From the sequence record OR525703.1: 44,710 nucleotides of DNA; one strand, given 5' to 3'. Positions 2,748 through 42,249 of this stretch are shown here, piece after piece (within the stretch, counting starts at the first letter, position 1; each line of letters opens with the position of its first letter). The DNA comes from Escherichia phage vB-Eco-KMB36. Under the pieces are notes generated by a model that was not told where the DNA came from, did not search any database, and worked only from the letters and a program-made list of their open reading frames with translations. A program made the translations under genes and the position numbers.

Positions 2748-2783
2748 GTTCACATATAGCCCCGAAAGGGGCTTTCTTATAGT

Positions 2784-5241: not shown

Positions 5242-5305
5242 AATGTCTGTGATTATTCCAGTTATTCCGCTCAATTGTAAATGTTGGAATAAACTATTCG
5301 AATAG

Positions 5306-5334
5306 TTGACTTTTCACTAAAAATGTGCTAAGCT
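5306..5334 (+). promoter_or_regulatory. sigma70-like promoter (copy 1 of repeated element)
   Basis: TTGACT, 17-nt spacer, TGcTAAGCT extended -10; CTATTCGAATAG palindrome abuts the -35. Confidence 0.5.
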
Positions 5335-5340
5335 CCACCT

Positions 5341-5541
5341 GAGCTTGTGAAGTATGAACAAGCGACCGCGGCGCGGGCAGGTAACGGAGCGGGACGTAAG
5401 TCCTGAGTGTAGTTACGCTGACGCGTTCGGAAGGGCCATACTCTATTGCTTGTGTAAAAAGTAACTGGTTTACTGAGATTACGCCGTTTCTATGTTTAAA
5501 TGATAAGGACTAGCGCCCCGCTTTATGGCGGGGCTTTACTT
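5341..5541 (+). ncRNA. candidate small RNA of about 200 nt, paralog A
   Basis: No ORF; bounded by the promoter and a GCCCCG/CGGGGC hairpin plus U-tract at 5513..5541; conserved 5-prime hairpin GCTTGT..ACAAGC and box TTCGGAAGGGCCATA shared with the copy at 36997..37210. Confidence 0.35.
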
Positions 5542-5558
5542 ATCGAGAAAGGAGAAAC

Positions 5559-14529: not shown

Positions 14530-14721
14530 TCACTTCTCTTTGACATTCGAGTTGCAAGCCCAGATTAAAATAAATACCCACGGCAGCAGAACCCAGCCAA
14601 GAAACAGATTGGCCATGAATATCGCTAATTTCGCTTTATGACCCCGCATATGGGCCACTAAAAACGGGATAAAATAAACTAAAACGATAATGATTAAGAA
14701 GAACATAGTAATACCTGTCAT
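14530..14721 (-). CDS. small membrane protein
   Basis: 63 aa with two hydrophobic helices. Confidence 0.45.
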   Translation of the reverse strand: MTGITMFFLIIIVLVYFIPFLVAHMRGHKAKLAIFMANLFLGWVLLPWVFILIWACNSNVKEK

Positions 14722-14762
14722 GGTGTAGCTCCTGTTTGAGTTAACATTGTTGGTGTAAGTGA

Positions 14763-14791
14763 ATAGTATCCTATTATGTTGGGGTGTGCAA
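14763..14791 (-). promoter_or_regulatory. sigma70-like promoter with AATAG-N4-CTATT palindrome
   Basis: Minus strand reads TTGCAC, 17 nt, TACTAT; near-identical to the plus-strand promoter at 37252..37280. Confidence 0.5.
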
Positions 14792-14898
14792 GTAATGTGT
14801 TAGAATTATTTTGCGCCTAGTGTCGCACACGAAAAGCGGGTGGTTCCCGTCTGGCGCATTTTCCTTAACCTGTAACCTCTTAACCAAAGGATTAAAGA

Positions 14899-24634: not shown

Positions 24635-26065
24635 TCATTTCTTACCTCGTCTCTTCATGTAATTAAGCAACTCTTCCTGTACTGATTTTTTCTCGTCGGT
24701 GCGCGCGGCAACAACCTCGTCCAGCGTGTCTTTAGCGACTATGTGATATAGGAACACTGGTCGCTCGTGGCCTGCCTGCTTCTGGCGTGTTGGACCTATG
24801 CGCTCGACAACCTGCAAATAGTGTTCAAGGTTCCAGCCTTGTGAGATAAACGCCAGATGATGCCCGCCATCCTGTAAATTTAAACCATGCCCGGCTGACG
24901 CAGGGTGAACGCATAAGATTTCGATTTCACCACGGTTCCACGCGTCCATCTGCTTATTGCCCTTCTCACCTTTGGCAAATGCCTGTGCTTGTGGGAATCG
25001 CTTAAGAATACGCTCCAGTTCGTGCTTGAACTGATAAGCCACCAGTAACGGCGCGCCCTGTAACTCCTCAACAATCGACTCAAGAGCATCAAGTTTCGTG
25101 TCGTGCACTTTCTCCCAGTCTTTGGTCGCTTCGCCATCCGTCCCTGACACATACACGGCACCAGATGCAATCTGCAAACACTTCGACGTCTTCGCCGCTG
25201 CGTTAGCTGCTTCAACTTCTCCGCTCTCCAGTTCTGCAAATAGCTTCTCCTCCATATCTATGTACGCCTGACGCGCTTTCTTCGGCAGGTCGATTTCAAC
25301 CGGTACGATAATCGGCGCTTCACACCCGAACCACTCGGCAGGGTCGATGGTCAGGCTGATGTCTTTCATCTTCTGATGAATTTCATTATCTGCACCCGGT
25401 CGCGCATGATATTCACGCGCCATAGCCGACTTACCTTTCTGTACCGAGTTAAACCAGCGGTCTGTGAATGCCGTATACGAAGAGCCGAGGCGCTCGCCAG
25501 CGTCGATAAACCAGTTCTGGCCCCACAGGTCTTTGAGGCCGTTAGGCGACGGTGTGCCCGTCAGATTGATGAAACGCTTAACTTTACCGAACGCCACTTT
25601 GCTGAGCGCCTTTGCCCGCTTGCTACCACCTGAACGGCTGCGGAATGATTTTAGTTTCGTGCTTTCATCGGCGACAATAACCGTAAAAGGCCAGTCGTCT
25701 TTGCCGTAGTAGTCAATCAGCCACTCAATAACTTCGTAGTTAGTGCACACCACGTTAGCGTCTGACTCCAGCGCCGCGATGCGGCGCTTCTCCGAACCAG
25801 TTGCATCTACGACACGCAGACAAGGGAATTGCCATTTCTCTTGTTCAGCGGGCCACGTACCGGACGCAACACGTAACGGGGCAAGGATTAACACGCGGTC
25901 CTCTTCCGTAAGCTGCCCGTTGCGGAACAGGCGGTTGAGCACCCACATAGTGGAGGAGGTTTTACCTCCCCCCATTCCGCACCAGATATTACAGCGCGGG
26001 TGTTGCAGCATGAACGAAGTCATGAGCTTCTGGTACTCTCGACGGATAAATTTAGACATGTTCAA
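24635..26065 (-). CDS. DNA helicase (superfamily 2-like)
   Basis: Walker A GMGGGKT and DExx-like VIVADESTK. Confidence 0.7.
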   Translation of the reverse strand: MNMSKFIRREYQKLMTSFMLQHPRCNIWCGMGGGKTSSTMWVLNRLFRNGQLTEEDRVLILAPLRVASGTWPAEQEKWQFPCLRVVDATGSEKRRIAALESDANVVCTNYEVIEWLIDYYGKDDWPFTVIVADESTKLKSFRSRSGGSKRAKALSKVAFGKVKRFINLTGTPSPNGLKDLWGQNWFIDAGERLGSSYTAFTDRWFNSVQKGKSAMAREYHARPGADNEIHQKMKDISLTIDPAEWFGCEAPIIVPVEIDLPKKARQAYIDMEEKLFAELESGEVEAANAAAKTSKCLQIASGAVYVSGTDGEATKDWEKVHDTKLDALESIVEELQGAPLLVAYQFKHELERILKRFPQAQAFAKGEKGNKQMDAWNRGEIEILCVHPASAGHGLNLQDGGHHLAFISQGWNLEHYLQVVERIGPTRQKQAGHERPVFLYHIVAKDTLDEVVAARTDEKKSVQEELLNYMKRRGKK

Positions 26066-26256
26066 TCCTTAACGTAGAGTACCAGCTCTTTACGCCCGAA
26101 CGCCGTAACGTTACCCGTTACATCTTCGATAACCAGTTTACCGTTCGACTCGACGAACACCGTATCAACGGCAACAGGACGACGGGTCTTAACGCTGAAA
26201 ATCATGTCGCCTGGTACGATGTCACGTGCTGGCTTGCGGTCATATTCGTGTTTCAT
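26062..26256 (-). CDS. hypothetical protein
   Basis: 64-aa ORF downstream of a minus-strand promoter. Confidence 0.4.
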   Translation of the reverse strand: MKHEYDRKPARDIVPGDMIFSVKTRRPVAVDTVFVESNGKLVIEDVTGNVTAFGRKELVLYVKD

Positions 26257-26286: not shown

Positions 26287-26574
26287 TTAACTATAATAGC
26301 TCGCTATTAGGTCGTCAACCTGTTTAAACGAACCAACGACAAAAACATTTGCACCACGTTTACGCATCCGCTCGTGCTCTCGTAACTGGTGCGGGTCCGG
26401 CTTCGTGTTTTCGTCTTTCTTAACCTCGACGAACCAGATGATGCCACCAGGGAGAATTACCAGCAGGTCAGGAGCTCCCACTCTATTTTCGTACGACAAT
26501 TTGCGTACAAGGCCCCCCATGGCCTCGAATCGCTCTTTTGCGTATTTCTGTACGCGGCCCTCTTTAGTCGCCAT
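26287..26574 (-). CDS. VRR-NUC-like nuclease
   Basis: PDLLVILPGG...WFVEVK pattern. Confidence 0.55.
   Translation of the reverse strand: MATKEGRVQKYAKERFEAMGGLVRKLSYENRVGAPDLLVILPGGIIWFVEVKKDENTKPDPHQLREHERMRKRGANVFVVGSFKQVDDLIASYYS
26290..26318 (-). promoter_or_regulatory. sigma70-like promoter with AATAG-N4-CTATT palindrome
   Basis: Minus strand reads TTGACG, 17 nt, TATAGT; palindrome at 26295..26308. Confidence 0.5.
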
Positions 26575-27143: not shown

Positions 27144-27275
27144 TCATTCCAGCACCCACAGATAAATTGCGATGAACATACCTAATACGGCTACCATCAT
27201 GCCGTATTGACCCTCATGACAGTAGACACCGGCGGCGAATCCCGCCAGTACCGCGATAATCAGTTTACTTAGCAT
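27144..27275 (-). CDS. hypothetical small membrane protein
   Basis: 43-codon hydrophobic ORF whose ATG overlaps the polymerase stop. Confidence 0.3.
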   Translation of the reverse strand: MLSKLIIAVLAGFAAGVYCHEGQYGMMVAVLGMFIAIYLWVLE

Positions 27276-30200
27276 AGCGTTTTAACTCCGCACCTTCCGC
27301 TACAAGAGGGAAACCCTCCGCCCACTCAGGCAGCGAACACATTAATTTTTCCAGTTCAGCCACCGTGTACTCTGGGGCATCTGGAGTTTCGCACACCAAT
27401 TCATCGTGTACCGAAAGCACGATGGGGTACCCGCCGCCTTCAACGTTAATCATCGCATACGCAAGTAAATCACGGCACAGCGCCTGAACAATGTTTTCGC
27501 AGGCTTTACCGCCGTGGGTGTACAGGGTAGTCCATTGGCGGGTTAACTGGTTTTCCCCCTGATACTTGATTCGCACATTCGTGTTTACCCGTCCGTCTTC
27601 GTCCGTTTCCTTTGTTACACTAACGCCGATTCCCGGATACGAGAGGATGCGACCTGACGGCAACTCCATGCATAACCACCAACCAGGAACCTCCCTGCCG
27701 GATGAATCAAATTCTACAGTACGCCATATGCGGATAGCCCTTTCCCCATTCCTTCGCAAGTGTGCTCCCGCCCAAAATTCACGACCAGGATTACGCACAG
27801 CGGCTAAAATTCCTTCTTTAAGGTCACGCCAGAACGCTACTGTTTCCGGGTGTGACTCGCGCCACATACGCTTGATTGCGTCGCATGTGCGCCACACTTT
27901 CTTGTCCAGAATATACGATGGTCGGTCATCCTTCTCACCTGGATGCGGGGGGCGCTTGGCTTCCTGGATGCGCGCCCATTCATATCCTCTCGCGGTGGCC
28001 GACCAGATGTGGTCCGGGAATGTACCGTCCATTGTTTTTGCCATCTCAATAAGGTCAAGACCTAAGTTTTTAGCAAACTGAACGAACGCCCCGACGCCAC
28101 CCTCGTAGCCTAGTCCAAGCTCGCAGTTATGCGCCACAAGAAAGCCAGAGCCTGAGGCTATAAGAAAACGGTTGCCGTCTTCCACATCAATCAGGTCGTA
28201 CACCGGCTCGCAGTAGGTTAATTTCCCGCTCAAGTTCAGCAATGCGGGCAACGGCTGCATCATACTTTCGTTGAAGCTCGGGTATTTGCCGTCTGTTTCG
28301 GCAGTTTTCAGAACGGCTGACAAACCGAATGTTTCCAGGTTCGTAGTTACCGTCTGTGTCGATTCTATCCATTTCGAGGTTCGGGTCATCCCAGCCTTCC
28401 AGAGTTTGAACATATCTAAGAAAAGACCTTTTATCAGTCCTCCACTGGTCGAATACCGTGATGCCTCTTGCCCCATAGTTTTTATAACCCTTATCCCTGG
28501 GGCTTGTTGTTCGCGTGATCGCCGCGGACAGCCGGTTGAGTAATCGCGTTCTGTGCGCATCATCCGGCATTGCGTCTTCGTAGCAGAAATACTGTTTACG
28601 ATATTTTTTTGTTGCTTCAAGGGCGCAGCGGTTGCATTGAGTGGTTTTACCCGCTCTGACGTTGTCATAATAGACCCGCCCCGGCATCTCTCCGCAATCA
28701 CATTGGACGAGTAGTTGTCTTTGGCCTTGTCGTTTTGGTAACTCGCGCAGGATAACCAAGCGTCCATACCTCTCTCCAGGGCGAGGCCCATCATATATCT
28801 GTTTGAAGCGAGTTGCTTTGCCTGCTTCCAGGAATGCGCCAAGATTTTGTGGTCTTCGGTCATTAGCACCCCGTCCACATTTATTACCGGTTTCCACCCC
28901 ATAAGGTGCGCGCCTTTTGTATTCACCCATTTTTCACCGCTCCATACTTTATCTGTTGATGTAACCGCCATAATATCCTTAAATCCGCCATCGGTCAAAA
29001 CTTGGGTATGACGGTGAAGGCACGCTTTACCAATCTGGCGCAAGTCTTTACGTTCTTTCTTAATATAGTCGGGGTCCATGCCAAACATCTTACCTGCGGT
29101 TACGCAATAAATATCCAACCCGGCGCGGAAAGTATCAAGCGCGGTTTCTTCGCCTGCCAACCACGCAAGCCCACGACCCTCAACGTTAGAGTAATCGGCA
29201 ACAACAAACTTATGCCCCACTTCCGGTATGATGCAGCTACGTACCGTCGATGCCGTTAGCTTGGCTACATCAAAACGGCGGTGTGCCCGGCCTTTAAGTA
29301 ACGCTGAAATGCCTTTATCCAGTTCATCATCGTGATAGTACCCGCGCGCCAGGTTCTGCGGCTGGAAGCCTTTACCCGCCCATCGCAGGGTACGTTTTGC
29401 CCCGCCATACTGTAAGCACCCGCGACGACGATCGTCAGACGAGCGGCCTAACAGCAGTGGGTTATATTTCGTTGACGCAGTGGATGCCGCCCCGAGGCGC
29501 ATTTCTATAATCGCGCGGGCATCGTCCGGTAAATCATCGTCTGCCAGCAGGTCGTTAAGCGTCGACTTCTGCGCGTTATGGATTCGGTGTGCTGGTGCGA
29601 GTTCACGCAGAATAGGCAGAAAGTCCTTACCGGTAAGCGAGCCGCCGTATTTGCGTTGGGCTTCTTCCTGTAACTGCGCTTTGTGTTTTTCCACGGCTTC
29701 GATTGCGGCTTCCGCCAGTGCAACGTCGACCTTAAACCCGCGGTCATTGATTAATTGGTCCAGCTCCAGTACACGGTCCTCGAACTCGGAGTTACCCCAA
29801 CGCGGCAGCTTATGGAAGACTTCGCGCATCGCAGTGATGTCGCTCACGGCGTACTTAATGAACAGCGCCCACTCGTCCGGGTGTGTTTCTGCGGTGTAGC
29901 GGCGGATTTTGTAATTCTTCGGTGTCGGTTTAGAGAAACGCTGAATCAGCGCCTTGCCGCGTTTATCTTTCGCGTTGTCCGCAGACACGCCCAACACTTC
30001 GCACAGTGCATCAAGTGACCCCGGCAGCGCGTGGCGAAACGCCCAAATCATCGTATCAATGGTGTTGCTTACCGGAATATCAAAGCCCCAGCAGTGCTTC
30101 ATGATGAGCCTGTCGAACATTAAAAAGTTATGGCCCACGATTTTCATACGTCCACGCATAACATTACGGAGAGCAACGCGGAGGCTTATTGGCATTACTG

Positions 30201-30360
30201 GTTCGGAAGTGCAATCCCATACTTCTACAGGACCGTCATCAACGGCATATGTACAAATTATAACCTCGGTCGTTGGATGCTCCGCGTACGCGTACGACCC
30301 AACTTTCTTTAAGTCCGCTCCAGAGAATGTCTCAGTATCTAGGTACAATAAACTAGTCAT
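27265..30360 (-). CDS. DNA polymerase I (family A) interrupted by an intein
   Basis: Exo motif YLDTETFS, polymerase motif A VADYSNVEGRG, C-terminal VHDELV; 299-aa insertion between RQIGKA and CELGLGYEGG. Confidence 0.8.
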   Translation of the reverse strand: MTSLLYLDTETFSGADLKKVGSYAYAEHPTTEVIICTYAVDDGPVEVWDCTSEPVMPISLRVALRNVMRGRMKIVGHNFLMFDRLIMKHCWGFDIPVSNTIDTMIWAFRHALPGSLDALCEVLGVSADNAKDKRGKALIQRFSKPTPKNYKIRRYTAETHPDEWALFIKYAVSDITAMREVFHKLPRWGNSEFEDRVLELDQLINDRGFKVDVALAEAAIEAVEKHKAQLQEEAQRKYGGSLTGKDFLPILRELAPAHRIHNAQKSTLNDLLADDDLPDDARAIIEMRLGAASTASTKYNPLLLGRSSDDRRRGCLQYGGAKRTLRWAGKGFQPQNLARGYYHDDELDKGISALLKGRAHRRFDVAKLTASTVRSCIIPEVGHKFVVADYSNVEGRGLAWLAGEETALDTFRAGLDIYCVTAGKMFGMDPDYIKKERKDLRQIGKACLHRHTQVLTDGGFKDIMAVTSTDKVWSGEKWVNTKGAHLMGWKPVINVDGVLMTEDHKILAHSWKQAKQLASNRYMMGLALERGMDAWLSCASYQNDKAKDNYSSNVIAERCRGGSIMTTSERVKPLNATAAPLKQQKNIVNSISATKTQCRMMRTERDYSTGCPRRSREQQAPGIRVIKTMGQEASRYSTSGGLIKGLFLDMFKLWKAGMTRTSKWIESTQTVTTNLETFGLSAVLKTAETDGKYPSFNESMMQPLPALLNLSGKLTYCEPVYDLIDVEDGNRFLIASGSGFLVAHNCELGLGYEGGVGAFVQFAKNLGLDLIEMAKTMDGTFPDHIWSATARGYEWARIQEAKRPPHPGEKDDRPSYILDKKVWRTCDAIKRMWRESHPETVAFWRDLKEGILAAVRNPGREFWAGAHLRRNGERAIRIWRTVEFDSSGREVPGWWLCMELPSGRILSYPGIGVSVTKETDEDGRVNTNVRIKYQGENQLTRQWTTLYTHGGKACENIVQALCRDLLAYAMINVEGGGYPIVLSVHDELVCETPDAPEYTVAELEKLMCSLPEWAEGFPLVAEGAELKRYAK
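28126..29022 (-). mobile_element. intein (Hint domain, 299 aa) in DNA polymerase
   Basis: CLHRHTQVLTDGGFKDI, TEDHKILAHS, VYDLIDVEDGNRFLIASGSGFLVAHN then Cys+1; boundaries checked on nucleotides. Confidence 0.65.
28187..28930 (-). CDS. HNH endonuclease gene overlapping the intein in the +1 frame
   Basis: Zinc ribbon CDCG...CNRC and HNH core DRIDTDGNYEPGNIRFVSRSENCRNRR; own GGAG RBS and ATG; frame offset from polymerase verified on nucleotides. Confidence 0.55.
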   Translation of the reverse strand: MGEYKRRAPYGVETGNKCGRGANDRRPQNLGAFLEAGKATRFKQIYDGPRPGERYGRLVILRELPKRQGQRQLLVQCDCGEMPGRVYYDNVRAGKTTQCNRCALEATKKYRKQYFCYEDAMPDDAHRTRLLNRLSAAITRTTSPRDKGYKNYGARGITVFDQWRTDKRSFLRYVQTLEGWDDPNLEMDRIDTDGNYEPGNIRFVSRSENCRNRRQIPELQRKYDAAVARIAELEREINLLRAGVRPD

Positions 30361-30880: not shown

Positions 30881-31507
30881 TTAGCGACGGCGACGTTCGC
30901 GGCGTGGTGCTTCATCTTCTTCGTCATCCTCAAGGTCATTGACGCTTGCAGCGACTTTAGAACCACCGAACGCTTTACCTTCGCCTACGTATTTAATCGC
31001 CAGCAGGTTAACCCCGAGAACTTTATATTTCTGGCTGAACCAGATTTCGACGCTTACGTTAGCGACGCAGCCGCTGTAAACTTGTTCACCTTCAATCTGT
31101 TCGCCGTCTACATTGAAGTCCTGCTCTACCTGAGTCTCACCTTTTTTAGAGGTAACAATCAGCGGCTGTTTCTGTGCCTTCGCTTTGAAGTAGAAGCCCT
31201 CCGGGAAGTCTTCAAACGGATTGTCACGCTCAGCAATGTCTTTAATCGCACATTTATCCATGTGCTTACCTTCGCCGTAGTTAGACTTCATCCACTTCTC
31301 AGCGGCGGCTGCACCTAACGCTTCTTCAACTACAGCGTAAACGGTGTCGTAGAGCGCGTCGATTTGCGCGTGGTCGGACGGCAGGATAATAGTCGCGCTG
31401 TACTGACCTTTAGTGATTGAACCATCATCATTTTCACGGTCTTTTTCGCGTTCGAATACGTTAACCCAAGCAGTGTTTACTTTACGCAGATTTAATTTCA
31501 GCCCCAT
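30881..31507 (-). CDS. ssDNA-binding protein-like (acidic C-terminal tail)
   Basis: 208 aa with C-terminal DLEDDEEDE tail; adjacent to exonuclease gene. Confidence 0.4.
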   Translation of the reverse strand: MGLKLNLRKVNTAWVNVFEREKDRENDDGSITKGQYSATIILPSDHAQIDALYDTVYAVVEEALGAAAAEKWMKSNYGEGKHMDKCAIKDIAERDNPFEDFPEGFYFKAKAQKQPLIVTSKKGETQVEQDFNVDGEQIEGEQVYSGCVANVSVEIWFSQKYKVLGVNLLAIKYVGEGKAFGGSKVAASVNDLEDDEEDEAPRRERRRR

Positions 31508-31562
31508 TTCTCGATTCCTCAGTTTTCAGTTTACTCCGGGAGCTGCCCGGCCAGTGATTAGA

Positions 31563-31591
31563 ACTATAATAGCTAACTATTCAGGTGTCAA
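31563..31591 (-). promoter_or_regulatory. sigma70-like promoter with AATAG-N4-CTATT palindrome
   Basis: Minus strand reads TTGACA, 17 nt, TATAGT; palindrome at 31568..31581. Confidence 0.55.
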
Positions 31592-31595
31592 CACT

Positions 31596-32852
31596 TTATT
31601 CCAAATCTTCTTCACTAACCTGATTCCACTCAGGCCGTTTGTCGTCTGCCGTTGTGATGCATGGGGCACCTGGCTTACGTGTGATGAAGTCTTTCAGTTC
31701 TTCTTCCGGTATCACTTTAACAGCTTCGGTTGGCGTCATGAGCACTTCTTTAGTCAGCTTGTCGCCGTAGAGTTCTGTTACTTTCTCCGCGTCTTTCCAC
31801 GCACGATTGCCCATCTTACCTTCAACCAGCTTGTACCCAGGAACTTTCTTACCGGAATGCAACGCGGCAGCCATAGCTTTCTCAACCTTATCGATGTGCT
31901 GGCGCAACAGCGGCAGCTTCTCATACTCAGCTACGAGTTGCTCCGGCGTAAGTTCCAGTGCAAAGTCGTCTTCCAGTTCTTCCACCAGTACGGAATTAAC
32001 CGTCTTTGTACGCGCGGCGCATTGTTCTGAGAACCGGCACCACTGGCAACCATCGACCGACGGCCTGAAGTCCGACGCTTTCAGGTTCTTCTTACCGCGG
32101 AAATATGCATCTAACGCTAACAGGGCACGTTTCTGTGCGAACTTAGCGAACAGTTCCAGACCTTCGACCGAGATGTCCCACTCTGCCGCATCTCCCGCGT
32201 ACGGCTGGAAGATGACCAGGCGCACTACTGTGATGTTATACCGTCTCTTGAGTCGGCGATAAACACCGAGAGCGTAAAGCATAAGCTGCTTGTTTTCTTT
32301 CGCTTCGACACGATGTCGCCCGGTTTTAAGGTCACCGATAATTAGCATGTGCTCGTCGGTGTTAGCCAGTTCCTGAACGGCAACAAGGTCAGCGGTTCCG
32401 AACGTCTCGACACCTTCGTAACCCGGATGCAATACCTCAGTAAGATTGACACGCATTTCCAGCTTGGCGTAAGTCGCTACATCGATAACAGCTTTGCAGT
32501 AGTCGGTGTACTTGCGCACCTGCTCAATCATGTCAGCCGTAATCAGGACAGCGCCTTTCATCGGGCTAATTAGTGCCTTAATCTGGCCTTTGCCTTCATC
32601 CAGCACATAAGCGCCAACTTCGCGCTCTAACGGCAGCGCAGTGCCTCTGATGTACTGATTTAAATGGACCTCTGCTATGGTGTGCATGGCTGTACCTAAT
32701 ACCGCGGCTTTACCGGACGTGTTAGGGATATCTTTTTCACAGGCCAGCGATGCGGCGCAGGTTAACCACTTTTTAGCACCTGACGGCGACAGTAAGGCGT
32801 GCACATCGTTATTGCCGCCGCGTTCCTTTAAAATCATACTCTGTTCTCCCAC
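31596..32852 (-). CDS. PD-(D/E)XK exonuclease (Cas4/RecB-like, Cys cluster)
   Basis: IIGDLKTGR nuclease motif and C-terminal CQWCRFSEQC cluster. Confidence 0.6.
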   Translation of the reverse strand: MGEQSMILKERGGNNDVHALLSPSGAKKWLTCAASLACEKDIPNTSGKAAVLGTAMHTIAEVHLNQYIRGTALPLEREVGAYVLDEGKGQIKALISPMKGAVLITADMIEQVRKYTDYCKAVIDVATYAKLEMRVNLTEVLHPGYEGVETFGTADLVAVQELANTDEHMLIIGDLKTGRHRVEAKENKQLMLYALGVYRRLKRRYNITVVRLVIFQPYAGDAAEWDISVEGLELFAKFAQKRALLALDAYFRGKKNLKASDFRPSVDGCQWCRFSEQCAARTKTVNSVLVEELEDDFALELTPEQLVAEYEKLPLLRQHIDKVEKAMAAALHSGKKVPGYKLVEGKMGNRAWKDAEKVTELYGDKLTKEVLMTPTEAVKVIPEEELKDFITRKPGAPCITTADDKRPEWNQVSEEDLE

Positions 32853-33106
32853 TGGTCAATTAAATGCCTGGTCTGGTGCTGGCAGCGCATGGCCCACCCA
32901 TACATCGACTCGAAGACATAAAAGTCAGGCTTGGCGAAAGTCGCGCGTTTAATCTGCGACACGTGACGGCCTATATATTTAGGCCGCGGTACTTTGCCTA
33001 AGTACGCCATCTCTTCCATCTGGTGCGCACCGGACGGCGCACGCAACAGCCACAACGCCTCTGTGCCATCCCGCCTGTCAACGGCGCGGTAGAGTTGGTA
33101 AATCAT
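32834..33106 (-). CDS. hypothetical protein
   Basis: 90-aa ORF. Confidence 0.4.
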   Translation of the reverse strand: MIYQLYRAVDRRDGTEALWLLRAPSGAHQMEEMAYLGKVPRPKYIGRHVSQIKRATFAKPDFYVFESMYGWAMRCQHQTRHLIDQWENRV

Positions 33107-33149
33107 AATTCCGACCCTCAGTTAAAGCGGCCCTCGGGCCGCAGGATAG

Positions 33150-33650
33150 TTATTCTTCTTCGAAATACTTGTTCTTGATTGCTGTCAGTCGTTCCAGGTA
33201 TTCAGCCAGGTCTTCGTCTTTAATCGCGGCAATCTTCATCTTCTTACCGGTGAACTCTTCAAGCAGTTCATCGGAATCATCACACGCGGCGTCGCTCGGA
33301 CCTTCGTTAATCGCATCGTCGATAGCCTGAATCTGGTCACGCAGAGACTGGTAATCGACTTCTTCTTTCTCTTCTTCCGGTTCTGGCGTTGGTTCCTCTA
33401 CTTTAGCTTTACGCGGCTTGCGTTTAGGCTTCTCTTCTTCTGCTGGTTTAGTGTCAACGACGTCTTCACCTTCGACCGGGATTTCTTTTGTTTCTTCTTT
33501 AATACTTTCAGAGAACTGCTCAATTTTATGAGCGGCTACTGCGGCAGCCTCTTTGGCAGTAGTTGGCGCGAACTGTTTCGCGCTGTTCGCAGCAATCAGT
33601 TCATGTGCAACTACGAAACGTTCCAGTAATTTTAAGAATTGTTCTAACAT
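33150..33650 (-). CDS. acidic early protein
   Basis: 166 aa, strongly acidic with one basic patch KPKRKPRKAK; first gene downstream of the early promoter at 33682..33710. Confidence 0.45.
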   Translation of the reverse strand: MLEQFLKLLERFVVAHELIAANSAKQFAPTTAKEAAAVAAHKIEQFSESIKEETKEIPVEGEDVVDTKPAEEEKPKRKPRKAKVEEPTPEPEEEKEEVDYQSLRDQIQAIDDAINEGPSDAACDDSDELLEEFTGKKMKIAAIKDEDLAEYLERLTAIKNKYFEEE

Positions 33651-33681
33651 TTGTTTCTCTCCTCTCGTTTGGTATGGGCTA

Positions 33682-33710
33682 ACTATAATAGCGAACTATT
33701 CACATGTCAA
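33682..33710 (-). promoter_or_regulatory. sigma70-like promoter with AATAG-N4-CTATT palindrome
   Basis: Minus strand reads TTGACA, 17 nt, TATAGT; palindrome at 33687..33700. Confidence 0.55.
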
Positions 33711-33744
33711 TGGGCTTTTCTAAAATAATTAATATGGTACTATT
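33699..33744 (+). promoter_or_regulatory. candidate divergent promoter and second operator-like site for the XRE-family gene
   Basis: TTCACA, 16 nt, TAAAAT; degenerate palindrome AATAT-GGTA-CTATT at 33731..33744. Confidence 0.35.
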
Positions 33745-33774
33745 CACATATCAACTGACTAAGGAGTAATTGAC

Positions 33775-33990
33775 ATGCAACCATCTGAACTAGGAATCCG
33801 TGTAGAACAGCGCCGTAAAGAGCTCGGTATTTCCCAGCGCCGTCTGGCTGTCCTGACCGGCGTTTCCCAGGGTGCAATTAACCAGCTTGCGCTTGGAGTA
33901 ACTCAGGACGTCCGCCCGGCGACGCTGTTTAAACTGGCGGAAGTGCTACAAGTAGACGCTAAGTGGCTGGCGTTCGGTGAAGGGGCTTAA
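33775..33990 (+). CDS. XRE-family HTH transcriptional regulator (Cro/CI-like)
   Basis: ELGISQRRLAVLTGVSQGAINQL helix-turn-helix; divergent from the early operon. Confidence 0.65.
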   Translation: MQPSELGIRVEQRRKELGISQRRLAVLTGVSQGAINQLALGVTQDVRPATLFKLAEVLQVDAKWLAFGEGA

Positions 33991-34005
33991 AGCCCCTTTC
34001 TTTTT
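33981..34005 (+). terminator. rho-independent terminator
   Basis: AGGGGCTTAAAGCCCCT followed by TTCTTTTT. Confidence 0.6.
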
Positions 34006-34007
34006 AC

Positions 34008-36269
34008 CTATTCCAAATCCTCCTCTGTCACTATCAGCATTTCATTCGGTTCGTATATTGTCTTCGGAATCTTGTTATCGTTTATGCCCCACGGCAACCG
34101 GTATTGCTTAGGGATCGGCCTGTTGTTGTTATCCAGCCCCGAGACTATAACCCCAGCCTCGTGCATCTCTTCCAGTTTCTTTCGAAGGTCGTTATTAGCG
34201 TTAATTGGTACGCCGTAACTATCCTCTTTCGCGGCTTTGACGATAGCGGACATAGAAAACCCCCGCTTGTCGTCGCCCTGCTCCTGCAATTTACCCAATG
34301 CGTAAATAACCGTAGCCTCTTTGGTGTCCAGTTTCTCGAACTGGCCCACCTTTTCTTTAACGGCTTCCTTCTGTTCGTCGGTCATACCTTCTACTTTCTT
34401 CACGAAGACAGAGAAGGAGTTAAAGTTAACAAAGACATCGATGTGCGGATTTCCTGCGTCAAAATCGCGGACATCATCACTACTGTACCCTTCCGGTAGT
34501 CCCATGAAATTGTGAGTTGGTTCTTTCTTTTCAGGTGGTTCCGCTATCTGAATCTTCTGTATTACGAACCCTCTCGCTTTCTGCCGTTCTCCGTTTCGAT
34601 TCTTTATGTGATACAGGTTTATCTCTAAGTTATTGTCGTTGTCCGGCTTATGCAGGAACATCCCGTTATCAATGGAGTTGTGAAAGTCACTTCCACCCTT
34701 CGGCATCATGCCGTTTTCGGATGGCACAGTTTCGTCGATGTTTTTAGTTGGGTGCACCATAGCGCCTACTGCGGCGTTCAGCGTCGACGCTATTTCGTTA
34801 AGTGCCTGTGCTGCTTCTTTCATCGACCTGTTGTCGTTCTCGTCGAAGCCCGGTATGCAAGTTTGCAGAGTATCAAACGTAACCTTTACAATTTTCTCTT
34901 CACCGGCGACACGGCGCATCATTCTCACCGCCTGGCGGCGCCACGTCTCATCGAGTAAGTTACACCCATCCGCAACACAATCGATAATGTGCAAGCGGTC
35001 AAGGCTGTCACCGAGGGCGATTTGCAAAGACTTTTTATGCCGCTCGAATGACTGCGCACCTTCACCCGCGAAAATAAATGCATGCCCTTCTGCGACCTCT
35101 GCCCCGCCGAACGCATATCTTTTTTCAGCGGCTATAGCGGCGTCAATCGCCATACTAAATGTTGACTTACCGGTATGCGATTTTGCGCAAATGTAGAATG
35201 ATTCGTTAGTCTGCATAAGGCCATCTACGACGGAGTAAGCAGGTTCTTTTTCAACTTCCGGCTCGTCTTCAAGGTCTTCCAGCGTGCAAGTTACAGGCTC
35301 TTCGTTCTCTGTGCGGTGCAATTCCTCAATCTCTTCGTCCGGTAAATCAGGCAAAGCCGCACGGATGCTGTTAATACTGATAGGTTGCTTGTCTACGTTA
35401 AGCTCGTCTGGGAGGCCACACATACGCAGGGCCAAATGTTGCCGGCGGTTAAGCTCGGTGCAAGCGCCGTTGTTTGTGTGCTGACACACGAAGCGCACTT
35501 CTTTACCGTCAAGCATGATGCTGGTGGAGCCTTTTCCGGTGTGCAGGTGTTCGTTAGGGCAAGGCACTTCGTACCCGCGACCGGAAGATAGAGCGTCAAG
35601 GCCAAGCTCCGCTTCGCAGAAATGAGCTATATCTGCGTTAAGCCCGTGCTCATCGGCAGCAAGCGTCTTAGCTTCACGTTTACGCAACCCCATCTCTTCG
35701 GCTTTCTTGATGTACCGCTCGGCACGGATAACACGCCCTTCTGTAACCGTTATCTTCGACTCTTTATGCGGCAGGTAGATAAGGCGGTTGCCGTCTTCTG
35801 TGCAGTGGTCGCGCAATGCTTCGTCTATTTCTAACTCCGCACAAATAGCCCGTTGCACCATCCACGCGTCGTTAGAGTTGAACGGAGTGCGAGCCGGAAC
35901 CAGAACGCGGAAAGCGTAGTCACCGTTTTTACACGCGTGCTGGTGCGACGCCGTTGTGTGCAGAATATTGAAGAACGGCGCGTTCTTGAATTTGCGGGTG
36001 AGGTCGCGGTACTGGGTACGGTTTAGATGGTCGAAATCGAACTTAACCACACTGTCTTCCAGAATCGCGTTTTTACGACGACCGCCAACAGGCGCAATAG
36101 CTTTCTGCTTAATCTTGGCAGCGTCGTACTCTTCCTTAGTCCAAGACGGGTCCACGGACAAACGCTTCGATGTATCGCAGACATACTCGACAAACTGCTC
36201 CAGCGGCATTTCACGCGCTACAGGGTTTTTATCGAATGTGTTACGCAGTGTTGCAAAAACAATATTCAT
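34008..36269 (-). CDS. replication protein, primase/helicase-like P-loop NTPase
   Basis: 753 aa; Cys/His zinc-binding segment CPNEHLHTGK...CQHTNNGAC; Walker A-like AKSHTGKST. Confidence 0.55.
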   Translation of the reverse strand: MNIVFATLRNTFDKNPVAREMPLEQFVEYVCDTSKRLSVDPSWTKEEYDAAKIKQKAIAPVGGRRKNAILEDSVVKFDFDHLNRTQYRDLTRKFKNAPFFNILHTTASHQHACKNGDYAFRVLVPARTPFNSNDAWMVQRAICAELEIDEALRDHCTEDGNRLIYLPHKESKITVTEGRVIRAERYIKKAEEMGLRKREAKTLAADEHGLNADIAHFCEAELGLDALSSGRGYEVPCPNEHLHTGKGSTSIMLDGKEVRFVCQHTNNGACTELNRRQHLALRMCGLPDELNVDKQPISINSIRAALPDLPDEEIEELHRTENEEPVTCTLEDLEDEPEVEKEPAYSVVDGLMQTNESFYICAKSHTGKSTFSMAIDAAIAAEKRYAFGGAEVAEGHAFIFAGEGAQSFERHKKSLQIALGDSLDRLHIIDCVADGCNLLDETWRRQAVRMMRRVAGEEKIVKVTFDTLQTCIPGFDENDNRSMKEAAQALNEIASTLNAAVGAMVHPTKNIDETVPSENGMMPKGGSDFHNSIDNGMFLHKPDNDNNLEINLYHIKNRNGERQKARGFVIQKIQIAEPPEKKEPTHNFMGLPEGYSSDDVRDFDAGNPHIDVFVNFNSFSVFVKKVEGMTDEQKEAVKEKVGQFEKLDTKEATVIYALGKLQEQGDDKRGFSMSAIVKAAKEDSYGVPINANNDLRKKLEEMHEAGVIVSGLDNNNRPIPKQYRLPWGINDNKIPKTIYEPNEMLIVTEEDLE

Positions 36270-36394
36270 TTCTTTTTCTCCGCACGTTCTAAGGCTTCCT
36301 GCATACGGCGCATTGCGCGGTTCATCTTTACCGGTGCGAAGAAATCAGCGCCGTGTTTCTGGCGGCGTAGCTGTGGAACTATTAACTTTGTCAT
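36266..36394 (-). CDS. hypothetical small protein
   Basis: 42-codon ORF with AGGA RBS, overlapping primase start. Confidence 0.3.
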   Translation of the reverse strand: MTKLIVPQLRRQKHGADFFAPVKMNRAMRRMQEALERAEKKK

Positions 36395-36462
36395 TGTATA
36401 ATCCTTGTGCTTACTTTGATGATTTGTACTTTAGCCCCGACGTTCTGGCGTTGGGGTTTCTT

Positions 36463-36675
36463 TTATTTACAACCAGAAAACCACGTGTGCTCGGAATCAT
36501 AGAAGCGGCATTTACTTAACACGTCTACCGGCATCTTAATAATTCGCGTCGGTTCCGACAAATGATTAGGTTTACATATTTCTGCATAGAATCCGCTGTC
36601 GGTAATTTCTGACGCAAACTTAAACCAGTATTTAACTTTACCGTTTTCAAAGTAACAACCCATACGCCCAATCAT
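36463..36675 (-). CDS. hypothetical protein
   Basis: 70-aa ORF. Confidence 0.4.
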   Translation of the reverse strand: MIGRMGCYFENGKVKYWFKFASEITDSGFYAEICKPNHLSEPTRIIKMPVDVLSKCRFYDSEHTWFSGCK

Positions 36676-36854
36676 TTCACATTCTCCTTAATCCACGCTT
36701 CAACTTTATTACGGTCGAATGTACCAGGTAAACGGCGACCCATAACTTTAATACAACAGTCGGGGAATTTGCCGCTGCGTAACCAGTTATTAATTGTCTG
36801 ACGTGTCACCCCAATACGCTCGGCTACTTCATTCTGTGTCATGTACTGTTGCAT
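36672..36854 (-). CDS. AlpA-like HTH DNA-binding protein
   Basis: MTQNEVAERIGVTRQTINNWLRSGKFP; ATG 36854 with AGGAG RBS. Confidence 0.55.
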   Translation of the reverse strand: MQQYMTQNEVAERIGVTRQTINNWLRSGKFPDCCIKVMGRRLPGTFDRNKVEAWIKENVK

Positions 36855-36885
36855 TTTTATATCTCCTGTTTGTTTGGTGAAACCG

Positions 36886-36914
36886 AGTATAGGATAGCGG
36901 GGATGTAAAAGCAA
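36886..36914 (-). promoter_or_regulatory. candidate sigma70-like promoter of the early operon
   Basis: Minus strand reads TTGCTT, 17 nt, TATACT. Confidence 0.4.
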
Positions 36915-36961
36915 CCAAAACTGAACGCAAAGTTACCAAAATACAAAAGATGCTACTGGTA

Positions 36962-36990
36962 TTGACTTTTCACTAAAAATGTGCTAAGCT
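36962..36990 (+). promoter_or_regulatory. sigma70-like promoter (copy 2 of repeated element)
   Basis: TTGACT, 17 nt, TGcTAAGCT; identical to the promoter at 5306..5334. Confidence 0.5.
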
Positions 36991-36996
36991 CGTCCT

Positions 36997-37210
36997 GAGC
37001 TTGTGAAGTATGAACAAGCGACCGCGGTGCGCGGCAGGCGAAACGAGCACGTCTAGACGTGTGGAGTGAGGCTCGCTGGCGCATTCGGAAGGGCCATAGT
37101 CTATTGTAATTCCCGCCTAGGTATCTAAGTTACTGATTTGCCGTAGGTTAGAACCGCAAGCTCACTCACTCACTCTTGGTGCCTTCGGCACCACGTTCGT
37201 TTCGTTTCGC
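36997..37210 (+). ncRNA. candidate small RNA of about 210 nt, paralog B
   Basis: No ORF; shares promoter, 5-prime hairpin and TTCGGAAGGGCCATA box with 5341..5541; ends at GGTGCC-TTC-GGCACC hairpin plus U-rich tract. Confidence 0.35.
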
Positions 37211-37251
37211 TCGCTAAACAAAAGAATCACAACGGCAACGTAACTATTCTC

Positions 37252-37280
37252 TTGCACACCCCAATATAATAGGATACTAT
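37252..37280 (+). promoter_or_regulatory. sigma70-like promoter with AATAG-N4-CTATT palindrome
   Basis: TTGCAC, 17 nt, TACTAT; palindrome at 37268..37281. Confidence 0.5.
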
Positions 37281-37305
37281 TCACTTATCGAAACGAGACA
37301 GAGGA

Positions 37306-37506
37306 ATGATGGTTATGTTTAAGAAGGGCCAGTTGGTTAAATGCGCCGACGGTGAACACGGCATAATTGAATTAAAATCTAATGTATTTCCCGGTGAGTA
37401 CGTAGTGACCGTGCAAAAGGTGAGAGGGGTAAATTCACAAATATACGTAGAAGAGGAGAACTTAAAACTCATTGGCAACAATTTTAAATTCAAAGGGGCG
37501 AAGTGA
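37306..37506 (+). CDS. hypothetical protein
   Basis: 66-aa ORF downstream of promoter; start may be ATG 37309 or 37315. Confidence 0.45.
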   Translation: MMVMFKKGQLVKCADGEHGIIELKSNVFPGEYVVTVQKVRGVNSQIYVEEENLKLIGNNFKFKGAK

Positions 37507-37709
37507 TGGAAGAATTATTTGAAGAACTGAAACATCATAGACTGGAGAAAGTGCATTTCCAGGTAAACAGATACGAAGTTGTTTTATTAGACGGCCCAAC
37601 TATTTCTTCCGGGGTATGCGAAGACTTGCTAAAAGTTTTACGTGCGCTACGAACGGCATCGAATCATGATGCTCGTGCCGAAGACTCTGAGGGAGGTTGC
37701 CGTGAATGA
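37503..37709 (+). CDS. hypothetical protein
   Basis: 68-aa ORF, coupled. Confidence 0.45.
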   Translation: MMEELFEELKHHRLEKVHFQVNRYEVVLLDGPTISSGVCEDLLKVLRALRTASNHDARAEDSEGGCRE

Positions 37710-37927
37710 ATAACACTGAGCTGAAAACAGTAGCGGAATATAACCATAAAATACGGGTCATGCGTCGGGGTGCCGGGCTGGAGCGGTTTTATAACATGTG
37801 GCGCACTGCGACGCGCGACCACGAGTTTCTTAGTACCGGGTATTATTTCAATAAAGGCATTATCCCGATTCGTGCCTGCAAGGATTACGGTTGGGTGCGG
37901 AGTTGCAAAGGCTTGGAGATTTTATAG
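37706..37927 (+). CDS. hypothetical protein
   Basis: 73-aa ORF, coupled. Confidence 0.45.
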   Translation: MNNTELKTVAEYNHKIRVMRRGAGLERFYNMWRTATRDHEFLSTGYYFNKGIIPIRACKDYGWVRSCKGLEIL

Positions 37928-37962
37928 TGTACCCCGACTTAGAAGATGATGAGGATTAAGGT

Positions 37963-38118
37963 ATGAGAGAAGCATTCGAACGTTGGGCCGTCGTCGAAGG
38001 TCTGCCGGTTAACAAGGGTTCAAAGAAAGAGTATCTGAACGTTAAGACACGTCTCGCGTGGCGGGCGTGGAAAGCTGGTGTGCAATCCTTGATTGAAAGA
38101 GGGGTGAGATATGGGTGA
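37963..38118 (+). CDS. hypothetical small protein
   Basis: 51-codon ORF with GAGGA RBS. Confidence 0.35.
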   Translation: MREAFERWAVVEGLPVNKGSKKEYLNVKTRLAWRAWKAGVQSLIERGVRYG

Positions 38119-38314
38119 GTGGATTAAGTGTAGTGAGCGGATGCCTGAAGGAACTAGTGACATCATTGTCGCCTGTTCGGATGGAATCGTAATGTCAGGT
38201 ATTTCTTATTCCCGCCGTAAAGGATTCTACATAGCTGCATTGGAGTACGATGACGATGAGCCTGTTACAGATGTTACCCACTGGATGCCATTACCTGAGC
38301 CGCCGGAAGTGTGA
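38111..38314 (+). CDS. hypothetical protein
   Basis: 67-aa ORF. Confidence 0.45.
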   Translation: MGEWIKCSERMPEGTSDIIVACSDGIVMSGISYSRRKGFYIAALEYDDDEPVTDVTHWMPLPEPPEV

Positions 38315-38438
38315 TGTTCAATAGTTTGGGATTTTACCGAGTGACTTACGCTGCTACACAGCAGCGTATCATTTTTCTCATTTTTGTTCTATTTCACCAA
38401 ACGCAACAATCGAAGCAACTATTGCAGGAGATGCAACA

Positions 38439-38609
38439 ATGAAACTGAATGACATCGTTACCTGGACCGGTAGAAACGGAGAAAAGCGATTCGGACTTAT
38501 TGTTGCGTCAGACGGCAACAAGTACCGTGTTATGCGATGGTGTCAGTGGGCACGACGCCCGAGGTACTACTGGATTCGTGGCGAACGATTATCTTTAAAA
38601 CACCAATAA
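38439..38609 (+). CDS. hypothetical small protein
   Basis: 56-codon ORF with AGGAG RBS. Confidence 0.35.
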   Translation: MKLNDIVTWTGRNGEKRFGLIVASDGNKYRVMRWCQWARRPRYYWIRGERLSLKHQ

Positions 38610-38616
38610 AATTTAC

Positions 38617-38645
38617 TTGCACACTGGGATAGAATAGGCTACTAT
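38617..38645 (+). promoter_or_regulatory. sigma70-like promoter with AATAG-N4-CTATT palindrome
   Basis: TTGCAC, 17 nt, TACTAT; palindrome at 38633..38646. Confidence 0.5.
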
Positions 38646-38675
38646 TCATTTACACAAACGAGAGGAGAGACAGAG

Positions 38676-38843
38676 ATGAAAGCAGTAACTAAAGATGAGT
38701 TTTTCAGCACAGTAGAAGGTCTTATGTATCACATGGTTATTAATGCGGGTACGCCAGAGTCTATCTACATAGATAGCGGTAATAATCTTGTCGCTAAAGC
38801 AACATGGAGTTACCCGGAAACCGTGTATGAGGTTGCGCAATGA
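38676..38843 (+). CDS. hypothetical small protein
   Basis: 55-codon ORF with GAGAGGAG RBS. Confidence 0.35.
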   Translation: MKAVTKDEFFSTVEGLMYHMVINAGTPESIYIDSGNNLVAKATWSYPETVYEVAQ

Positions 38844-39067
38844 CCCCCGCAAAAGCACGTGCGCTGTTACGCCGCAATGGGATTCTTGATGAGGTGGACA
38901 TCCTTGTAGAGAAATACGGCATACACATGATAGGTCGCCAGCCGAAAGGCGATATGCGTTGGATGGCGGGGGTCCCCGGTACGCCTGGCGTGTCATACGG
39001 CGACACATTAACCCATGCGGTCCATACTTACATTATTGAGTCGGTACTAGGAGAAACCAATGAGTAA
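38840..39067 (+). CDS. hypothetical protein
   Basis: 75-aa ORF. Confidence 0.45.
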   Translation: MTPAKARALLRRNGILDEVDILVEKYGIHMIGRQPKGDMRWMAGVPGTPGVSYGDTLTHAVHTYIIESVLGETNE

Positions 39068-42199: not shown

Positions 42200-42220
42200 T
42201 CTATTTTCTGCAATGACTAG

Positions 42221-42249
42221 TTGACTATTAACTACGACCCTATTATATT
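42221..42249 (+). promoter_or_regulatory. sigma70-like promoter
   Basis: TTGACT, 17 nt, TATATT. Confidence 0.45.

Follow-up and report, generated by a model that had tools for sequence, protein, structure and literature searches.

A constrained 14-bp dyad in the core of seven sigma70-type promoters of a Kagunavirus genome, a putative operator of a 434-Cro-like regulator

The genome of Escherichia phage vB-Eco-KMB36 (OR525703.1), analysed here over its full 44,710 nucleotides (the window), carries six perfect copies and one degenerate copy of the palindrome AATAG-N4-CTATT, all of which overlap the core of a sigma70-type promoter, and the motif is under selective constraint across two phage genera. 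Comparing these sites with their counterparts in related phages, we favour, at about even confidence, the reading that the palindrome is the operator of a dimeric phage HTH repressor, for which the likeliest candidate is the 71-residue XRE protein encoded between two of the sites. The repeat itself is already published, in phage fBC-Eco01 (PMC9825357). In the literature searched, the dyad was nowhere described as an operator, and we found neither start-site data nor a usable account of the transcription programme for Guernseyvirinae; an RNA-seq time course of the Kagunavirus K1B4 (PMC12645636) sorts genes into classes too coarse to time the regulon, with no promoter or start-site analysis, and places one HTH gene among four 'early' genes.

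The window belongs to Kagunavirus (Guernseyvirinae). A megablast search with positions 31000..39000 returned Escherichia phages fTaEco03, Golestan, Snoke and other Kagunavirus at about 90% identity, and weaker matches to several hundred Salmonella Jerseyvirus records. The layout (Table 1) is typical of a virulent siphovirus of 42-45 kb, with about 7.3% of the window non-coding, and no CI partner, integrase or lysogeny module was found beside the XRE system in this genome. By Pfam, the eight largest ORFs comprise DNA polymerase A, tape measure, tailspike, AAA helicase-primase, Mu-F, SNF2 helicase, a PD-(D/E)XK nuclease and one ORF with no Pfam match. Two of these are unusual in size or domain content: the Mu-F-like head morphogenesis ORF (2784..4754) encodes 656 aa, compared with about 347 aa in fBC-Eco01 and Jersey, and the family A DNA polymerase ORF (27265..30360) encodes 1031 aa with only a short Pfam match. 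Since an intein has been reported in the capsid morphogenesis gene of the sister phage Snoke (PMC6776784), inteins or insertions are likely in these two ORFs as well.

An exact search recovered the perfect palindrome at the six positions listed by the sequence-only reading that preceded this work, and the degenerate seventh copy it described next to the XRE gene departs from the consensus by a single mismatch. The motif occurred in none of 100 dinucleotide-preserving shuffles, compared with six times in the window, where no other 5-mer palindrome with a gap of 0-10 nt is as frequent; the remaining frequent ones are the stems of terminator hairpins. A weight matrix built from the seven sites gave scores above 25 bits to those seven and nothing else; the runner-up reached 12 bits. 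Six of the seven lie in non-coding DNA, the exception falling within the last codons of an ORF. The dyad consists of two 5-bp half-sites with centres 9 bp apart, a spacing that suits a dimeric HTH protein on one face of the DNA, and when read on one strand all seven sites share the asymmetric extension ATAATAG-N4-CTATTCAC. A role at the RNA level was considered and rejected: in both promoter classes described below the palindrome lies upstream of the predicted start and is untranscribed from its own promoter, and a 5-bp stem with a 4-nt loop would be weak. Rfam gave no family match anywhere in the window.

Table 1. Palindromes, promoters and candidate regulators in the window
Feature	Coordinates	Strand	Sequence or elements	Context
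Palindrome O1, perfect	33687..33700		AATAGCGAACTATT	Class A spacer of a minus-strand promoter, abutting the -10
Class A promoter at O1	33682..33710	-	TTGACA-17-TATAGT, 11/12	Drives 33650..33150 and the downstream exonuclease module
Palindrome O2, one mismatch	33731..33744		AATATGGTACTATT	Over the TACTAT -10 (33738..33743) of the XRE promoter, class B
Perfect palindrome	31568..31581			Spacer of a class A promoter
Class A promoter	31591..31563	-	TTGACA-17-TATAGT	Upstream of an Enc34-type ssDNA-binding gene (31507..30881) and the DNA polymerase gene
Perfect palindrome	26295..26308			Spacer of a class A promoter; within the 3' end of ORF 26287..26574
Class A promoter	26318..26290	-	TTGACG-17-TATAGT	Upstream of 26256..26062 and the SNF2 helicase gene
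Perfect palindrome	37268..37281			Over the -10, class B
Class B promoter	37252..37280	+	TTGCAC 37252..37257, TACTAT 37275..37280	Drives small genes from 37306
Perfect palindrome	38633..38646			Over the -10, class B
Class B promoter	38617..38645	+	TTGCAC 38617..38622, TACTAT 38640..38645	Drives genes from 38676
Perfect palindrome	14762..14775			Over the -10, class B
Class B promoter	14791..14763	-	-35 14791..14786, -10 14768..14763	Drives a minus-strand island: superinfection-immunity gene 14721..14530, metallophosphatase and HNH genes
Probable weak eighth site	42216..42229		ACTAGTTGACTATT	Overlaps the -35 of the next promoter
Late-operon promoter	42221..42249		TTGACT-17-TATATT	Heads an operon running into terminase and structural genes
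XRE/HTH_3 protein, 71 aa, 434-Cro-like	33775..33990	+		Monocistronic; followed by terminator-like hairpin 33979..33999
HTH_17 (excisionase/MerR-like winged helix) protein, 60 aa	36672..36854	-		ATG at 36854 after AGGAG
HTH_17/helicase-primase operon promoter	36914..36886	-	TTGCTT-17-TATACT	Without palindrome
Small-RNA-like element, copy 1	5305..5545	+	Own TTGACT-17-TAAGCT promoter	Promoter without palindrome
Small-RNA-like element, copy 2	36962..37200	+	Own TTGACT-17-TAAGCT promoter	Promoter without palindrome
Structural genes		+		
Replication and recombination block	24.6-36.9 kb	-		
Small genes, lysis genes, then terminase	from 37.3 kb	+		

The claim that every copy sits on a sigma70-like promoter held: all seven overlap a sigma70-type promoter facing a gene, the palindrome overlaps core promoter elements in 7/7 cases, and a ribosome-binding site and start codon follow each promoter at 25-60 nt. 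These promoters fall into two classes. The three of class A (sites 26295, 31568 and 33687, all on the minus strand) read TTGAC(A/G)-N4-AATAG-N4-CTAT-TATAGT and are near-consensus in a promoter scan, with 10-11 of 12 sigma70 positions matched and 17-bp spacers. Class B comprises two plus-strand sites (37268 and 38633), the minus-strand site 14762 and the degenerate copy at 33731, and reads TTGCAC-N10-AATAG-NN-TACTAT-T; its three TTGCAC-17-TACTAT members (37268, 38633 and 14762) match only 7/12 consensus positions, fall below the scan threshold and were read directly from the sequence, yet they are conserved in relatives. The earlier statement that the palindrome covers both the spacer and the -10 is accurate for class B, in which the right half-site lies inside the -10, but has to be revised for class A, where the palindrome fills the spacer and shares just the first T of TATAGT. 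The promoters at 14756..14792 and 37251..37287, described as near-identical, indeed match at 36/37 bases once registered, in opposite orientations, and are best regarded as duplicates of one cassette.

Between the TATAGT and TACTAT promoters the dyad is thus found in two registers about 5 bp apart and in opposite orientation, the asymmetric flanks opposing the direction of transcription in class A and following it in class B. The two registers and opposed flanks exclude a fixed promoter element and disfavour an activator that makes fixed contacts with the polymerase, and near-consensus class A promoters with 17-bp spacers need no activation. Activation of the MerR type, in which the dyad occupies an over-long spacer of 19-20 bp, was rejected, all spacers here being 17 bp. 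Reverse-strand promoters at the class B sites were also considered and rejected, as poor matches with no genes downstream, with the exception of a 9/12 match at 37291..37263. A dyad placed in two registers and two orientations inside the core of promoters with consensus 17-bp spacing points to steric repression rather than to activation, MerR-like distortion or a promoter-loaded factor of the Q/AlpA type that requires a fixed geometry.

We compared the sites with 37 Kagunavirus and 12 Jerseyvirus loci, each extending up to 10 kb either side of the XRE gene. The motif scan of related genomes proposed with the sequence-only reading found the perfect palindrome at orthologous promoters in nearly all loci of both genera, O1 being perfect in 38/38 sequences (the window and the 37 related Kagunavirus loci), and relatives also preserve the imperfect left half of O2. 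For a quantitative view, orthologous regions were taken by BLAST regardless of the motif, aligned and deduplicated, leaving 31-42 distinct sequences per promoter, and variation was expressed, for each column, as the share of sequences without the majority base, averaged over each region. The half-site distal from the -10 varied at 0.010 in class A and 0.006 in class B, and the proximal one at 0.003 in both, compared with 0.043 (class A) and 0.019 (class B) for the -35 hexamer and 0.043 for the rest of the -10 in class A; in class B the -10 is inseparable from the dyad, coinciding with centre positions 3-4, the TA of the -10 (0.006), and the proximal half-site. Variation was far higher in the central bases (0.24 over all four in class A, 0.19 over positions 1-2 in class B), in the spacer between the -35 and the palindrome (0.19 and 0.12) and in the flanks (0.10-0.13 and 0.07-0.13). 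The half-sites are therefore among the least variable promoter columns, less variable than the -35 and, in class A, than the rest of the -10.

Relatives show one-base indels between the -35 and the palindrome that leave the dyad intact and on the -10 side, and the rare natural variants lie mostly at half-site position 2 (ACTAG twice in L039; AGTAG in L009 and L026). The spacer of a sigma70 promoter receives no base-specific contacts, so that a distal half-site nearly invariant within it, across two genera in which the neighbouring spacer and the centre vary, indicates selection beyond sigma70 recognition. The supposition that the palindrome is constrained as such is thereby borne out. Its conservation across genera despite diverged flanks also argues against mere recent duplication. 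In Cornellvirus, which infects Salmonella, no repeated 5-nt palindrome was found, and the orthologous promoters carry ATTAG-N4-GTATT, which is not dyad-symmetric.

The XRE protein, put forward earlier as one of two candidate regulators, stands up as a reasonable one. It contains a Pfam HTH_3 domain (E 1e-12), and among proteins of solved structure its best relative is 434 Cro (E 2e-6, residues 6-68 of 71), followed by the 434 repressor, P22 c2 being a weak sequence match. Its gene sits between two minus-strand operons, and the divergent promoter region that serves it contains two sites, the perfect O1 on the opposing class A promoter and O2, 44 bp away centre-to-centre. O1 beside the gene and O2 on the gene's own -10 form the layout expected for negative autoregulation. 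The recognition helix is invariant across Kagunavirus except for one conservative Gly-to-Ser change, and its first Gln is kept in three genera (Kagunavirus, Jerseyvirus and Cornellvirus), as is base 1 of the half-site; in 434 the helix-initial Gln contacts operator base 1. After this Gln comes a small residue, Gly or Ser, in agreement with the tolerated variation at half-site position 2. Between Kagunavirus and Jerseyvirus the protein is 49% identical and the helix reads SQGAINQ and SQSLITH respectively, the half-sites being identical, and Cornellvirus retains the protein (39% identity) though the dyad is gone, which makes the co-variation of the XRE protein with the half-sites ambiguous across the three genera.

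A word-indexed protein search for XRE-like helices elsewhere gave Kagunavirus-like proteins only, and a contig scan for XRE relatives gave generic XREs with unrelated helices and one Jerseyvirus-like contig (L063, NZ_JACVEL010000022.1), from an assembly of Taishania pollutisoli (Flavobacteriia). Over the 70 residues compared its XRE protein is the commonest Jerseyvirus variant, and AATCGTGCTCTATT lies upstream of the gene; to judge from this, the contig is probably Jerseyvirus-like DNA, present by contamination or as a co-assembled phage contig.

The set probably extends beyond the seven main sites. The 14-mer of the probable eighth, weak site hardly varies within Kagunavirus, unlike the spacer that follows, although this conservation is owed in part to the -35 itself; the Jerseyvirus equivalent is AATAGTTGACTAGT. 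The structural module of fBC-Eco01 contains two inserted minus-strand gene islands, each headed by an additional copy, and the promoter-plus-dyad cassette thus marks transcription units outside the late operon. In the window, a one-mismatch copy (TATAGTATGCTATT, 2778..2791) lies in a 36-bp gap after the portal-gene terminator (2759), at the place where fBC-Eco01 carries a minus-strand gene with a full palindrome-bearing promoter; the copy seems to be what survives of such an island after its loss.

Several relatives, L005, L006 and L023 among them, have an extra perfect palindrome (e.g. AATAGGTTACTATT) just upstream of the terminator equivalent to 38347..38368, preceded by two copies of the direct repeat GGTGTAACAGG and with no obvious -35. 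The window counterpart at 38320..38333 is degenerate (AATAGTTTGGGATT), and neither it nor its equivalents in relatives have a recognisable promoter attached.

The promoter of the HTH_17/helicase-primase operon lacks the palindrome, and so do the two small-RNA-like promoters (Table 1). The latter belong to two paralogous non-coding elements of about 200 nt, each ending in a GC hairpin, which are nearly identical over their first ~90 nt and share a second block, TTCGGAAGGGCCATA.TCTATTG. RNAalifold, applied to nine sequences, predicted 60 pairs, 13 of them with compensatory changes, and there was no Rfam match even at E<=1; from these features we regard the two as a candidate pair of phage small RNAs. 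Copy 2 is recognisable in only some Kagunavirus loci, and a CTCA/CTCACT tandem repeat just before its terminator hairpin (37160..37176) differs in length between phages, with extra units in L005 (13409..13635).

Combining the two-register placement with the layout around the XRE gene, we infer the following switch. Host sigma70 RNA polymerase would initiate at all phage promoters; as the regulator accumulates, it would occupy the perfect operators first, between the -35 and the -10 at the three replication/recombination promoters and over the -10 at those that serve the small-gene operons and the minus-strand island, and would exclude RNA polymerase by steric occlusion. The one-mismatch sites, 33731 on the regulator's own promoter and 42216 on the -35 of the late operon, would fill later, giving negative autoregulation and a graded shift from early to late expression, and the three site-free promoters would escape control. 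Repressor occlusion of sigma70 promoters is a textbook mechanism; a simple early shut-off is harder to reconcile with the weak site on the late promoter. That one dimeric regulator gates the whole set, as the sequence-only reading had it, agrees with the two registers and orientations, which fit an independent dimer that occludes promoters; the XRE protein remains a candidate binder, the 'early/middle' label given to the regulon is provisional, and other readings have to be weighed.

The first of these takes the HTH_17 protein as the binder of all palindrome promoters, working by repression or, like lambda Q or AlpA, as a factor loaded at the promoter, which we consider unlikely. This protein is limited to the genera that bear the palindrome, Kagunavirus and Jerseyvirus (442 phage records at >=70% identity), between which it is 82% identical, in line with the unchanged half-sites, and it is missing from the whole genome of the Cornellvirus Shemara, where the dyad is lost; this phyletic argument, however, amounts to one loss event, and co-variation across the three genera is ambiguous for HTH_17 too. 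The putative recognition helix changes from TRQTINNW to STMTLNRW in L024 and L032, both of which nevertheless retain five perfect palindromes. An AlphaFold model (pLDDT 78) gave Xis, BldC, RacA, the DNA-binding domain of the terminase small subunit and MerR N-terminal domains as top Foldseek matches. The N-terminal domains of RacA and MerR bind inverted repeats, which counts for this binder, but proteins of the Xis type usually bind direct repeats, as does Apl of phage 186 (PMC7498355), and no dimerisation element is evident within the 60 residues.

That the promoter of the HTH_17 gene is itself free of the palindrome would suit a scenario in which early synthesis from an operator-free promoter precedes action on the palindrome promoters, a sequence of events we think doubtful. 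The position of the AlpA element of P. aeruginosa between the -10 and -35 of its targets (PMC7969949) and the many intrinsic terminators reported for relatives (13 in Golestan, PMC7203180; 23 in fBC-Eco01, PMC9825357) are compatible with a loaded factor, but two registers and two orientations are hard to square with one that makes fixed contacts. The earlier label 'AlpA-like' for this protein had to be dropped: its fold is a generic HTH_17/excisionase one, it resembles AlpA in neither sequence nor fold, and no AlpA chain occurs among its PDB sequence matches up to E=10.

Alternatively, the binder could be a host factor common to E. coli and Salmonella, or another phage protein, with the non-late promoters tied to the state of the host, a reading to which we assign a rather low probability. 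It would account for half-sites that are identical in E. coli and Salmonella phages despite variation in both phage candidates, and many small phage ORFs have no known function. The 5-N4-5 geometry and the TAG/CTA core recall the trp operator ACTAG-N4-CTAGT, and L039, site 42216 and the Jerseyvirus late promoter show the variants ACTAG and CTAGT; yet in 13/14 half-sites of the seven main sites an A replaces the C of CTAG that matters for TrpR, and we know of no host factor with the consensus AATAG-N4-CTATT. Moreover, Cornellvirus infects Salmonella too, without the dyad, and two sites bracketing a phage regulator gene are the usual mark of a self-encoded system.

Slightly lower still in our estimation is the absence of any dedicated regulator, the motif being intrinsic to paralogous promoter cassettes and kept by descent together with a requirement of RNA polymerase or a modifying factor. 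The cassette duplication seen at 14762 and 37268 counts in its favour, as does the proximal half-site, which overlaps or abuts the -10. Two genome reports point the same way, listing seven 'phage RNAP promoters' in fBC-Eco01 with the same consensus, tgAATAGTa-ccTATTat-T (PMC9825357), and seven PHIRE promoters in Golestan (PMC7203180). Against this, the distal half-site lies in the sigma70 spacer and is still better conserved than the -35, register and orientation differ between classes A and B, and dyad symmetry serves no role in a unidirectional promoter.

The promoters found by PHIRE are the same motif at orthologous places (TGAATAGTATCCTATTATGT and others in PMC9825357, Table S2), and in their accessible parts these papers credit a phage RNA polymerase and mention neither the dyad symmetry, nor the overlap with sigma70 hexamers, nor the XRE neighbour. 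We reject the label of a phage-RNA-polymerase promoter: none of the eight largest ORFs contains an RNA polymerase domain, none is annotated in the records of Golestan, phi135, Jersey, Shemara and fBC-Eco01, and the motif is opposite in orientation and shifted by about 5 bp in register between the classes. The phage may encode a small unrecognised sigma factor.

Least probable, and in our view very much so, is that the Xis-fold HTH_17 protein, as a non-homologous analogue of Q and AlpA, loads at the palindrome: made first, it would engage RNA polymerase at the palindrome promoters and carry it through operon terminators, so that antitermination rather than repression would set gene timing; terminator-like hairpins are present inside operons, but only class A has the element between -35 and -10 as AlpA and Q do, the class B dyad lying over the -10.

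If repression by the XRE protein is correct, a single Cro-like protein without CI controls all seven palindrome-bearing sigma70 promoters through one 14-bp operator, which would offer a simple model of temporal control for Guernseyvirinae that is open to test and would correct the published 'phage RNAP promoter' annotation. Kagunavirus and Jerseyvirus are widely isolated and have been proposed for therapy against E. coli and Salmonella, and the repressor, operators and promoters would form a compact set for engineering such phages.

Among known systems, AlpA and lambda Q are small DNA-binding proteins that act at elements between the sigma70 -35 and -10, AlpA being an antiterminator that recognises a non-palindromic element at this position (PMC7969949, PMC9371919). 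The AlpA element, GGGACG-N5-GGTA, contains no palindrome and has one fixed register, unlike the window dyad with its two. Comparable in geometry are the operator core of P22 c2/Cro, TTAAG-N4-CTTAA, and the E. coli trp operator, which lies over a -10; both share the 5-N4-5 arrangement and the ..TAG/CTA.. core, but their half-sites differ, the P22 proteins are part of a temperate switch, unlike the virulent phage here, and TrpR is a host protein with no demonstrated link to the window. A further parallel is phage 434, whose operators are likewise 14 bp long (ACAA-N6-TTGT), with conserved outer and variable inner bases, and whose Cro protein is homologous to the XRE protein over its full length, both having 71 residues. 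In both phages, the 14-bp dyad keeps its outer bases, varies at its centre and lies on sigma70 promoters in a divergent control region, with one site on the regulator's own promoter. The half-site AATAG and the 5-N4-5 spacing differ from those of 434, and binding by the regulator is here putative. Whereas the 434 operators are clustered in triplets at two loci, the sites in the window are not clustered but stand singly on seven or eight promoters spread over 28 kb of a virulent genome.
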